From IMG/VR virus record IMGVR_UViG_2519899779_000002: a DNA stretch of 48,133 nucleotides; one strand, given 5' to 3'. The position numbers were made by a program. The stretch is from a virus. Its lineage: Duplodnaviria > Heunggongvirae > Uroviricota > Caudoviricetes. Shown in pieces: positions 12,001 to 15,000 of the stretch (position 1 is the first letter of the stretch; each line of letters opens with the position of its first letter).

Positions 12001-15000
12001 TTTTATTCGCGGGCGTATTGGTTTTGAACTGCCTGCCTGGTTTATCCCGAAAGACGAAAAGCAGGTGCCAACAGGTGCTTTCTTCGCTGGTGCTATTGCT
12101 GTTTTCGACAAGACCTGGAAGGGACCGGCAATCAGCTACATAGGGCGCGATGAACTTGAGGCATGTGGTGAGGCGTTTCTGGCGCAGGTTCGCCAGCAGG
12201 CGGAAAAACTGGTCAGGGAGATGGCGGCATGACGACGTTAACTCAATGCCAGCAGCAGGTGCTGGATATGCTGATTTCTTATCAGAAAGAACGTGGCTTC
12301 CCGCCAACCAATCAGGAGGTGGCAACCATGCTGGGATACCGTTCGGTGAATGCAGCGGTGGAGCATCTTCGCGCACTGGAGAAAAAAGGCGTCATCACGA
12401 TAAAGCGTGGCGTGGCCCGGGGGATAACGCTTCATACTGCGATGAAGGACGACGACAGCGAGGCGGTCGGGATTATCCGCGCACTGCTTGCCGGTGAGGA
12501 AAACGCAAGGCTGCGTGCAACCCACTGGTTACATGAGAGGGGCCTGAAAGTATGAAGCTAATACTGCCTTTTCCGCCCAGCGTGAACACGTACTGGCGAC
12601 ACCCCAACAAAGGGGCGTTTGCTGGTAAGAGCCTGATAAGCGCGGCGGGGCGAAAATTCCAGAGCGCGGCGTGTGCAGCAATAGTTGAGCAGTTACGTCG
12701 TCTGCCGAAACCAACGTCGGCACCTGCTTCAGTGGAGATCGTGTTGTTTCCTCCGGATAACCGGATCCGCGATCTGGACAACTATAACAAGGCGCTGTTT
12801 GACGCCCTGACCCACGCGGGTGTGTGGGAAGACGACAGTCAGGTGAAAAGAATGCTGGTGGAGTGGGGACCGGTTATCCCGGAGGGGAAGGTCGAGATCA
12901 CTATCAGTAAGTACGAAAAAGCGAGTTGCAAATTAGCAACTCGGTAACGGAATTGAGCAACACCCTAAATTTGGGTATTACCTCGTTAAAGATACTGTAT
13001 TTATGAACAGTGTATCCTTGATAACTATTAAAAATCGCAGTAAGTTCATCCTGCATCAACGAAAAGGGAGTGCAGTCCCGCTCGTGGATAAAAATTTGTG
13101 GAGAAACCAATGAATCAGTTGCTTGTAATTGATGGCGTTTCTGTGCGCCAGTACTTCGAATCTAACTACTGTCTTAACGACCTTCAGAAAGCTGCTCTTC
13201 TTGCCGCTGGTGAGAATCGCTCCTCCCGTTCGCTGGAAGTTCACGAGTTTATGCGTCGTCCTGAAACGAAGGCTCTTGTGGAATTATTGGAAGAAGAAAC
13301 TACGGGAGATTCCCGTAGTATTCCTGTCATCACCATTCAGGGGCGCAATGGTGGGACGTATGTCTGTAAAGAGCTGGTCTATGCATATGCAATGTGGATC
13401 AGCCCGGCATTCAGCTTAAAAGTGATACGTACTTTTGATGCGCTTCATAATTCATCACCAGAAGAAACCACATCCGACAAAATTAAATCCGGGGTCATTC
13501 TGCTTGAATCAGCAGCAAAGACTCTAAATCTGTCAAACTCCTCGAAACTTGGTGCATACCAGAAATTATCAAAGGTAGCTGGTCTTCCTGAACTTATGCC
13601 GATCTATGCCATTGATGCACCTGCTGATGCGCCAGATGGTTCAAGCCGCCCTACGCTGTCGCTGAGTGCACTGCTGAAGCAGTATGGTATCCGCCTGACG
13701 GCTAATCAGGCATATCACCAGATGGTGAAGCTGGGGATCGTCGAGCAGCGCGAACGATACAGCCGTACCGCGATTAACAACATCAAAAAATTCTGGTCGC
13801 TGACAGCGAAAGGCTGCATGTTCGGCAAGAACATCACCAGTCCCGCAAATCCGCGCGAGACGCAGCCGCATTTCTTCGAATCCCGATTCCCTGAGCTGTT
13901 AAAGCTGCTCGATACCGTTCATTGAGGTGACCGTGAGAGCACTACTGACCCCTGAAATTGCCCCGCGTATGGGGATCGTATTGTTCAGACCAGGTTCAGA
14001 GCTGATGCCCTTGTTTATGCAGGGGCGTGTCTTGCTGGAGCCTGAGCCGGAACGTTATTCATCTTTCGCCAGTGGTGCCGTTCCGGCGGCATCACAACCG
14101 CTGGCGGATGATCCTGCCGTTCGGGCCGTGTTCCGTAATGAGGCAGTGATCCGTCGTGCTGGTGGCGTGGAATGTCTTGAAAGCTGGTTACTTCGTGAAA
14201 AAGGCTGCCAGTGGCCTCATTCCGACTGGCACAGCGAGAACATGACAACAATGCGACACGCTCCGGGCGCAATCCGTTTGTGCTGGCACTGCGATAACCA
14301 GCTGCGCGATCAGTTCACGGAACGGCTGGAATCAATGGCAACGGATAACAGTGCCCGCTGGGTGTTGTCTGTTGTGCGTCGGGATCTCGGTTTTGATGAC
14401 AGTCATGTTGTGACAATGCCGGAACTGTGCTGGTGGCTGATTCGTAATGATCTGGCGGATGCCTTACCGGAAAGTGCAGCCCGTAAGGCACTGAGATTAC
14501 CGAAGCCTGTTGTGCCGTCTGTTACCCGGGAAAGTGACCTTGTGCCTTCGGTTCCTGCCACCAGCATCATCCAGGATAAGGCGAAAAAGGTGCTGGCGCT
14601 GAAAGTGGATCCGGAGTCGCCGGAGTCTTTTATGTTACGCCCCAAACGTCGCCGCTGGGTTAATGAAAAGTACACGCGCTGGGTTAAGACGCAGCCGTGC
14701 GCATGTTGTGGAAAACCTGCTGATGATCCCCACCACCTGATAGGTCACGGTCAGGGTGGAATGGCTACAAAAGCGCATGACCTCTTTGTGTTGCCTTTGT
14801 GCAGAAAGCATCACGACGAGCTGCATGCGGATACCGTGGCATTTGAAGAGAAGTATGGCTCCCAGCTGGAGCTGATATTTCGTTTTATCGATCGTGCACT
14901 GGCAATTGGCGTGCTGGCCTGATTTTGTGGAGAAAGTTGATGCGTGATATGTATGAAGTATTGGACCGCTGGGGTGCATGGGCTGCAGCAGATAACAGTG

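Follow-up and report, generated by a model that had tools for sequence, protein, structure and literature searches.

The stretch of DNA analysed here, taken at its full length of 48,133 nucleotides and hereafter called the window, is IMG/VR virus record IMGVR_UViG_2519899779_000002 (Caudoviricetes). It represents a lambdoid prophage, and its genes are described rightward from cI (Table 1). Two elements between the replication genes and the antiterminator gene Q are the subject of this analysis: an open reading frame (ORF) for a 108-residue protein that resembles the DNA-binding part of LexA, and an SOS box (LexA operator), TACTGTATTTATGAACAGTG, that lies in front of a kilA-N gene.

Gene order

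The gene cro is followed by a cII-like gene, and then by genes for a Rha/Ash-type regulator, a replication protein, a PerC-like protein and a Dam methylase, the last of which directly precedes the LexA-like gene. The stop codon of dam and the start codon of the LexA-like gene overlap as ATGA, and the same overlap joins the LexA-like gene to rusA. The SOS box lies 438 bp past the LexA-like gene, within the 162-bp gap between rusA and kilA-N, at -117 from the kilA-N start codon. The genes kilA-N, DUF968 and Q follow each other with only 1-2 nt in between.

Table 1. Features of the window and the evidence by which they were recognised (HI, heterology index; see text)
Feature	Position	Strand	Evidence or remarks
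cI repressor	7310-8002	-	Pfam HTH + Peptidase_S24, E 5.8e-19
Second strong SOS box, TACTGTTTTTACATACAGTA	7774-7793		inside cI, linker codons NTVCKNSI; HI 3.6
cro	8100-8360		cII-like gene after cro
dam methylase	11546-12232		upstream neighbour of the 108-residue ORF
Truncated LexA homologue gene, 108 aa	12229-12555	+	Pfam PF01726, PDB matches, AlphaFold2 model, PHROG 362
rusA, Holliday-junction resolvase	12552-12947	+	Pfam RusA, E 6.4e-15
Mosaic cassette	12924-13350		last rusA codons, whole intergenic region, first ~65-80 kilA-N codons; blastn break points
SOS box (LexA operator), TACTGTATTTATGAACAGTG	12993-13012		perfect CTGT-N8-ACAG core; HI 6.0
Putative sigma-70 promoter of kilA-N	13018-13046	+	-35 TTGATA 13018-13023, 17-nt spacer, -10 TAAGTT 13041-13046
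Leader stem-loop GGGA-GTGCAG-TCCC	13066-13079	+	upstream of kilA-N ribosome site
kilA-N gene, 271 aa from ATG 13110	13110-13925	+	Pfam KilA-N, E 1.3e-15
DUF968/HNH-like gene	13927-14922	+	Pfam DUF968, E 6.6e-81
Antiterminator Q	14925-15281	+	Pfam Phage_antitermQ, E 2.5e-45
N6_N4 DNA methylase gene	17375-18424		head of late region; Pfam N6_N4_Mtase, E 1.6e-44
Third strong SOS box, TACTGTAAAAATATCCAGTT	17383-17402		codons 3-9 of the N6_N4 DNA methylase gene; HI 4.1

A LexA DNA-binding domain without its protease

The 108-residue protein covers the Pfam family LexA_DNA_bind (PF01726) entirely (1-65 of 65 positions; E 2.9e-19; 69 bits, with the cut-off at 23.7), and an HMMER search of the PDB returned the E. 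coli LexA chains at E values of 6e-16 to 1e-15. Pfam gave no match to Peptidase_S24 in this protein, and Ser119 and Lys156 of LexA are thus without a counterpart. The score stays below the cut-off of the lexA equivalog family TIGR00498 (70.4 vs 110.95 bits), and the protein belongs to PHROG 362 ('transcriptional repressor'; E 1.2e-59). An AlphaFold model, made from an alignment of 15 family members and reaching a predicted local distance difference test score (pLDDT) of 84.7, consists of a winged helix-turn-helix (wHTH; residues 1-68), a low-confidence linker (71-74) and only two further helices (73-88 and 93-103). When superposed on the LexA chain of the DNA-bound crystal 3jso, its N-terminal domain deviates by 0.9 Å over 68 columns, with 50% identity. 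An earlier note on this DNA had recognised the LexA domain and the lack of an S24 domain by eye, and both are borne out by these results. The helical tail matched no solved fold; the non-LexA matches in the PDB, all with E values of at least 0.01, were to other wHTH regulators (MntR, MepR, MecI). We infer from the model that the helical hairpin is a new dimerisation element, which would replace the RecA-responsive S24 domain.

The statement in the same note that the protein has no Ala-Gly cleavage region calls for a refinement. The HMMER alignment extends to LexA residue 86 and places residues 76-90 of the phage protein (EAVGIIRALLAGE) on LexA 72-86 (EGLPLVGRVAAGE), so that the phage 'LLAGE' falls on the LexA 'VAAGE' and Ala88-Gly89 is aligned with the cleavage site Ala84-Gly85. 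The dipeptide lies in a predicted helix with no catalytic domain alongside, and since the homologues do not keep it, a conserved cleavage site was rejected.

In E. coli LexA the residues that contact the DNA are S39, N41, A42, E44 and E45 (PMC3091678). Four of these five (S39, N41, A42 and E45) are retained in the 108-residue protein, with a Val at position 44, and the protein should therefore recognise CTGT-type half-sites. Glu44 is gone from every aligned member of the family, and part of the clade that we denote P0139-like has Leu for Glu45. The retention of the LexA base contacts over 40-50% sequence divergence argues for sequence-specific binding of a LexA-like target.

An exhaustive HMMER search returned full-length relatives of ~105-135 residues, with 41-52% identity and the helical tail kept; judged from these alignments, the protein family is real and old. 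It is also a very common gene of E. coli prophages that is already widely annotated, as 'LexA family transcriptional regulator' in E. coli: 2232 of 5426 complete E. coli genomes (41%) carry its DNA, at 2854 places, as do SfV, SfII, SfIV, mEp460, cdtI and many Stx2a and Stx2c phages. The next gene is rusA in both the E. coli-type and the P0130-type clade, distant homologues included, and the stop/start overlap of the two genes recurs wherever the junction was read (the window and the loci L092 and L093). The P0130-like loci have the order replication gene, LexA-like gene, rusA (80 of 80), Rha/ANT-type gene, DUF968 and Q.

The SOS box and putative promoter in front of kilA-N

The box in the rusA-kilA-N gap, which the earlier note had placed about 440 bp downstream of the LexA-like gene, is an operator of good quality. 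Sites were scored by a heterology index (HI), symmetrised and based on 25 E. coli operators, the absolute values of which are approximate. On this scale the 6.0 of TACTGTATTTATGAACAGTG lies inside the span of the training operators (2.1-11.7). In 1000 shuffled windows the best site had a mean HI of 12.5 and a minimum of 7.08, and not one of them equalled the observed box.

Five nucleotides separate the end of the box from the -35 hexamer of the putative kilA-N promoter, which is the best candidate in the window under a relaxed consensus. The centre of the box would be at about -50 from the inferred transcription start, upstream of the -35. An operator that abuts the -35 in this way is compatible with occlusion by LexA as well as with an activator site.

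For comparison we fetched 80 loci from other species that encode relatives of the KilA-N N-terminus. SOS-like boxes (HI<12) were present in 10 of 78 kilA-N upstream regions, vs 7 of 1834 equally sized control windows, an enrichment of about 30-fold, and they cluster at -75 to -165 from the kilA-N start codon. The signal exists only at such relaxed thresholds, a strict box (HI<8) being found at 1 of the 80 loci. The aligned rusA-kilA-N gaps of the window, Leclercia, Kosakonia, Enterobacter, Superficieibacter, Raoultella and Citrobacter share one layout: an SOS-like box, 5 nt, a -35, a 17-nt spacer, a -10, a stem-loop, the Shine-Dalgarno (SD) sequence GTGGAGA and the ATG. The -35 (TTGATA) and -10 (TAAGTT) of the window share their columns with variants of the -35 (TTGAAA, TTGAAG) and of the -10 (TAAGGT, TAATGT, TAATCT) in L034, L038, L045 and L064. 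Many of the homologous boxes are degenerate in the left half, which reads GTGG or TTGT and suits host LexA poorly. Taken together, the SOS box at kilA-N looks functional, with a predicted promoter beside it. Between kilA-N and Q we found only weak terminator-like matches, inside DUF968; the SOS-controlled promoter therefore probably also feeds Q.

A mosaic cassette carries the box

In blastn comparisons of the window with SfV, Stx2a, mEp460 and cdtI, the similarity ends at 12923 and is back at 13296-13353. Between these borders lies a mosaic cassette that includes the box. SfV, SfII, mEp460, cdtI and Stx2a phages have the LexA-like gene and no box: their rusA-kilA-N gap is 19 bp, which in SfV, Stx2a_1447, mEp460 and cdtI was seen to be too short for a promoter. 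Among phage records the cassette was found only in SfIV, VIT_AJPSC and PhiR49_1. It is present in 186 of the 5426 E. coli genomes (3.4%), including O104:H4 and S88, at 204 places; by the ratio of 204 to 2854, about 7% of the E. coli LexA-like places have it. The cassette is 96-100% identical throughout E. coli, and conservation of the box within the species is therefore uninformative on selection.

Two other features of the cassette were considered. An upstream ORF of 36 codons (13003-13113), which starts in the box and overlaps the kilA-N ATG, was rejected because an 11-bp indel in natural variants breaks its frame. On the minus strand, the last rusA codons hold a terminator-like hairpin (12922-12943; CGAGTTGCTAATTTGCAACTCG then CTTTTTCG), which had no counterpart in the corresponding regions of other genera. 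A small RNA from the minus strand, SOS-controlled and ending at this hairpin (12943-12922), was unsupported, with only weak promoter candidates and no match in Rfam.

Gene and box are mostly inherited apart

The LexA-like gene and the SOS box are mostly inherited apart, and their pairing is not obligate. Of the SOS-like boxes in front of kilA-N homologues, half sit in loci without the LexA-like gene. Among 22 kilA-N loci that contain rusA, six have both the box and the gene, five the box only, one the gene only and ten neither. The number of SOS boxes in phages with the gene was not above that in phages lacking it (six genomes compared). Moreover, the canonical form of the box is kept beside a phage protein with either Glu45 or Leu45, which indicates that the boxes are host-LexA sites.

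Other arrangements bring the two closer together. In Edwardsiella the gene order is rusA, box, kilA-N, LexA-like gene. The P0139-like clade is Klebsiella-type and belongs to PHROG 362, its best match among phage records being Klebsiella phage Kp4865-4 (70.8% identity). In this clade rusA adjoins the LexA-like gene in only 5 of 34 loci. A near-consensus SOS box is found in 24 of the 34, at 437-1172 nt (mostly 437-689) upstream of the LexA-like gene, and some of these boxes are a perfect TACTGTATATATATACAGTA. At locus L279 (1837-3327), which was read in detail, an SOS box over a promoter is followed by dinI (Pfam 1e-23), an ORF of ~100 residues, the LexA-like gene (Pfam 2e-20), orf67, DUF968 and an ORF in the position of Q without a family match. 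The ~100-residue ORF of loci L257-L290 falls in PHROG 1813 (unknown). Variants of this organisation exist: an SOS box, a UmuD-like gene and its own terminator precede the dinI operon in 8 of the 34 loci, and dinI is missing between the box and the ~100-residue ORF in some sub-clades. The LexA-like gene thus comes third or fourth behind the near-perfect box that heads its operon.

In the Gifsy prophages a LexA box situated between the replication genes and Q controls dinI, an antirepressor and an irsA homologue (PMC3121763). Judged from its gene order, the truncated LexA of the P0139-like clade is a member of a LexA-controlled operon at the place of the Gifsy antirepressor operon, which is the strongest link between the gene and the SOS response.

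Is KilA-N an antirepressor?

The earlier note had proposed that KilA-N is a LexA-repressed antirepressor that triggers induction, and that the LexA-like protein tunes or vetoes this circuit at the same box in the lysogen. The parts of the proposal that concern the DNA hold up well: the operator is of good quality, the cassette is conserved, and in Gifsy a LexA box is found at the equivalent place of the nin region, which makes a positional case for a KilA-N antirepressor. The part that concerns the protein does not fare as well. The KilA-N domain (PF04383; residues 14-118) was the sole domain found, residues 121-271 had no Pfam match even at E 10, and the label of its family, PHROG 129, is 'transcriptional regulator' only. 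No similarity was found to known antirepressors of the ANT/KilAC, AntA/B, Tum or GfoA/GftA types. In most relatives kilA-N is an ordinary early-operon gene, without a promoter or box of its own. Nothing tested marks KilA-N as an antirepressor, and as far as the sequences go the sole argument for it is its position.

The cI protein, in which the note had correctly seen an S24 domain, carries the motifs ...SASAGNG..., GDSM and YVKRL (Ala-Gly, Ser and Lys) of the self-cleaving type, so that an antirepressor is not needed for induction. This point has some limits, since Fels-1 has a cleavable repressor and yet an antirepressor that acts on another prophage (PMC3121763). The position of the gene argues against the proposed veto: the LexA-like gene is packed into the early operon ahead of the SOS promoter, no consensus promoter of its own was detected, and on this ground it should be silent in the lysogen and unable to veto induction. 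The GenBank record of SfV does annotate a dam promoter within orf40, upstream of the LexA-like gene, from which the gene might be expressed in the lysogen.

Further SOS boxes

The window contains two other strong SOS boxes (Table 1), both with a better HI than the one at kilA-N. ST64B, Klebsiella phage Kp4872-1 and Flotzy have the box inside cI at the identical offset, +209, in homologues of 68-84% protein identity whose linker residues around it diverge (VKSNTVCKNSIGED, PKGNTVCKHSDMRK, ENDTTVHINSEKHA, PNETTVCKSSGKNP). That the position is fixed while the residues differ suggests that the DNA motif is under selection; the site could serve as an internal promoter, a roadblock or an antisense promoter. 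The third box, at the 5' end of the N6_N4 methylase gene, lies downstream of a terminator-like hairpin (16880-16900). It recurs in the methylase gene of each of cdtI, SfV, Flotzy and Kp4866-6, whether or not the LexA-like gene is present.

Perfect CTGT-N8-ACAG cores number six in the window, vs 0.6 expected, and of the spacings from 0 to 20 only N8 is enriched; another half-site spacing, as for a differently built dimer, was rejected on this ground. Four of the six (9010, 23774, 38066 and 47206) have GC-rich spacers, lie in coding regions and score an HI of ~15.6 or worse; the one at 9010 is also present in cdtI. The excess of perfect cores could be due to chance.

Interpretation

The reading that we favour, tentatively and with somewhat less than even confidence, is that the locus combines two separable modules: an SOS-controlled promoter in the nin region, and a LexA surrogate without a protease, which probably binds sites of the CTGT type once the phage is committed. 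The cassette (12924-~13350) would supply a weak promoter under host LexA that reads kilA-N, DUF968 and Q. Cleavage of LexA in the SOS response would then induce KilA-N, with possibly some Q, by a path that does not involve cI. Since the LexA-like gene is part of the early rightward operon, the 108-residue protein should appear only after cI is gone, or on infection. Lacking the autocleavage domain, dimerised through its tail and recognising CTGT-type half-sites, it would act as a RecA-insensitive stand-in for LexA and most likely re-occupy LexA-type operators after that commitment. Candidate targets are the kilA-N box, the cI box, the methylase box and possibly host SOS promoters. In the P0139-like clade such re-occupation would feed back negatively, with a delay, on the SOS operon. 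Of this picture, the identity of the domain, the quality of the operator, the conservation of the cassette, the gene order and the distribution are read directly from the sequences, and promoter activity, read-through into Q, dimerisation, DNA specificity and the direction of regulation are inferred.

A bolder form of this reading, possible if doubtful, is that RecA-proof LexA surrogates are widely encoded by enterobacterial prophages, as in 41% of complete E. coli genomes, and re-occupy SOS operators after LexA cleavage. Produced from the early operon, or in the P0139-like clade from a LexA-controlled operon, they would impose delayed negative feedback, as a pulse or lock, on SOS-controlled promoters of prophages: that of kilA-N and Q in the window, and those of dinI and a candidate antirepressor in other phages. 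In lytic growth the surrogate might silence the host SOS regulon anew, together with LexA-controlled antirepressors that belong to rival prophages. The Ala-Gly kept at the LexA cleavage position could even expose the E. coli-type protein to trans cleavage by LexA or cI.

Several observations weigh against a surrogate that acts on SOS boxes. With Glu44 lost throughout the family and Glu45 replaced by Leu in part of the sister clade, the specificity may have drifted from the SOS box. The isolated N-domain of LexA is a weak operator binder, and the proposed dimerisation through the tail comes from the model of a monomer. Searches of a literature library returned no experimental work on the protein family. 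The box is absent at 64 of 77 near-identical LexA-like loci in IMG/VR, and the 80 P0130-like loci (486 kb) contain no SOS-like site. Conversely, the kilA-N box occurs without the LexA-like gene in L068, L052, L017, L009, L023 and L061, the cI box in ST64B, Kp4872-1 and Flotzy, and the methylase box in Flotzy. All three types of box in the window are thus present where the gene is missing, and the boxes do not need the LexA-like protein. The association counts in the 22 rusA-containing loci are confounded by shared ancestry and uncorrected for relatedness. As to the promoter, the kilA-N candidate did not pass a stricter consensus scan, and an operator upstream of the -35 is less typical for repression by LexA and also compatible with activation.

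The first alternative is that there is no regulatory link at all, the LexA-like protein being a DNA-binding accessory of the recombination and replication module (dam, rusA), with an incidental descent from LexA, and the box an independent moron-type promoter under host LexA that came in by mosaic exchange. We consider this unlikely. It would explain why rusA is the most constant neighbour of the LexA-like gene in two of the three clades, and it agrees with the sharp borders and minority distribution of the cassette and with the frequency of LexA-controlled morons (dinI, umuD-like) in such phages, with the gene or without it. It does not explain the P0139-like clade, in which the gene is mostly not beside rusA but in an SOS-controlled operon, nor the conservation of the LexA base contacts across the diverged family.

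Alternatively, the LexA-like protein may be an activator with a specificity of its own, comparable to gp6 of GIL01, acting from a site that overlaps a -35 or lies just upstream of one; we rank this lower, as improbable. The site could be the box at about -50 of the kilA-N promoter or one near Q or the late promoter, with host LexA competing or acting independently. The precedent is real, as gp6 consists of a LexA DNA-binding domain only and activates the late promoter P3 from a site that overlaps the -35 and is centred at -43.5 (PMC6182141). The placement of the kilA-N box just upstream of a -35 with a poor -10, the degenerate left halves of many homologous boxes and the systematic loss of Glu44 would all suit such a role. 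However, half of the boxes are without the gene and most of the genes without a box, the recognition helix is far nearer to that of host LexA than the gp6 case implies, with four of the five contacts kept, and no alternative conserved dyad was found, the N8 spacing being the only one enriched in the window.

The induction circuit of the earlier note, in which a LexA-repressed KilA-N antirepressor is vetoed by the LexA-like protein, is in our view the least probable explanation, because the LexA-like genes in or beside SOS-controlled units in the P0139-like clade and Edwardsiella, although in its favour, are offset by a box at only ~7% of the E. coli LexA-like loci and by the properties of KilA-N, cI and the early operon described above.

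Leader stem-loop and neighbouring features

The leader stem-loop of kilA-N was found upstream of the gene in 27 loci, 18-40 nt before most of the start codons and in many genera (e.g. L001, 3824-3839). Its (G/T)TGCAG loop is invariant, and its stems differ and covary, both sides changing in 5 of 5 pairs. Cells are paired in 92.9%, vs 57% when shuffled and 31-57% when slid, the first figure being biased upwards because the loci were chosen for having the stem. In the short-gap phages without the SOS cassette the stem-loop is encoded within the 3' end of rusA. Rfam gave no match to it; it may be a translational operator or an RNA that binds a protein. The minus strand has a second copy (6626-6645), with a stem of 7 bp, upstream of a gene of the leftward operon. 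The motif TTTGTGGAGAAA(CC) is repeated in the regions of the ribosome-binding sites of kilA-N (13094-13109), Q (14922-14940) and a leftward-operon gene (6645-6660, minus strand), and may be a common strong SD context or a sequence of mosaic junctions.

The Rha/Ash-type gene is annotated as an ORF of 381 residues (8907-10052), in which the PHROG match begins only at residue 61 and a plus-strand terminator-like hairpin is found at 9321-9338. The true start of the gene, or a tR1-like signal, may be internal to this ORF. Between Q and the strong terminator-like hairpin at 16880-16900 (GCCGCTGAGCGGT + TTTTTTTG) lie two overlapping minus-strand ORFs of 182 and 308 residues (15294-16755), neither of which had a match in Pfam or PADLOC; they look like a moron inserted beside the late promoter region. 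PADLOC gave nothing meaningful on membership of a defence system for the LexA-like protein, the KilA-N protein or the two ORFs after Q.

Implications

If the surrogate does bind SOS operators, many strains of E. coli, Shigella and Shiga toxin-producing E. coli carry a prophage gene that is able to override the SOS response, which governs mutagenesis, persistence, prophage cross-induction and, in the Stx phages that have the module, toxin release. If the SOS promoter reads into Q, DNA damage could turn on the late genes by a route that bypasses cI. Should the protein have another target, it would be an ordinary regulator of the nin region, and the box one more LexA-controlled moron promoter.

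Relation to known systems

The coliphage 186 protein Tum and AntC of N15 are demonstrated antirepressors, SOS-controlled through a host LexA operator instead of by repressor cleavage, or on top of it. No homology links them to the KilA-N protein of the window. The tum gene is mentioned in the study of the Gifsy prophages (PMC3121763), which are the closer parallel in layout: Gifsy-1, -2 and -3, like the window, have a host-LexA operator outside the immunity region, between the replication genes and ninG/DUF968 plus Q (PMC3121763), and the P0139-like clade shares the dinI-first layout with the Gifsy operon. The systems differ in that the Gifsy repressors are non-cleavable and antirepressor-dependent, whereas the window cI has an S24 domain, and in the first gene behind the operator, which encodes a KilA-N protein in the window and is dinI, with a small antirepressor, in Gifsy. 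The idea that IrsA is a LexA-like protein was rejected, STM2620 of Gifsy-1 being a 200-residue protein of the NinB/Orf type and Gifsy-1 being without a LexA-like gene.

With host LexA (3jso, 1jhh) the similarity of the window protein continues past the linker as far as the cleavage-site position; in contrast to LexA, the phage protein has no S24 domain, Glu44 is replaced and the tail is a helical hairpin. The only characterised phage-encoded truncated LexA that we found is gp6 of GIL01, a tectivirus of Bacillus thuringiensis, which binds DNA and regulates a phage promoter (PMC6182141). It resembles the window protein in being a LexA wHTH without an S24 domain, and the life cycle of GIL01, like that of the window phage, is wired to host LexA and SOS boxes. 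However, gp6 is a wHTH with a short beta extension, whereas the window protein adds a conserved helical hairpin of 35 residues, and gp6 recognises the palindrome GaCACAn nTGTGaC through Lys38 to activate a late promoter, whereas the window protein shares S39, N41, A42 and E45 with E. coli LexA. The hosts are different as well, a tectivirus of the Firmicutes on the one hand and an enterobacterial lambdoid siphovirus or myovirus on the other. The case described here joins the themes of gp6 and of Gifsy in lambdoid phages, with an architecture that differs from both and a very wide distribution.

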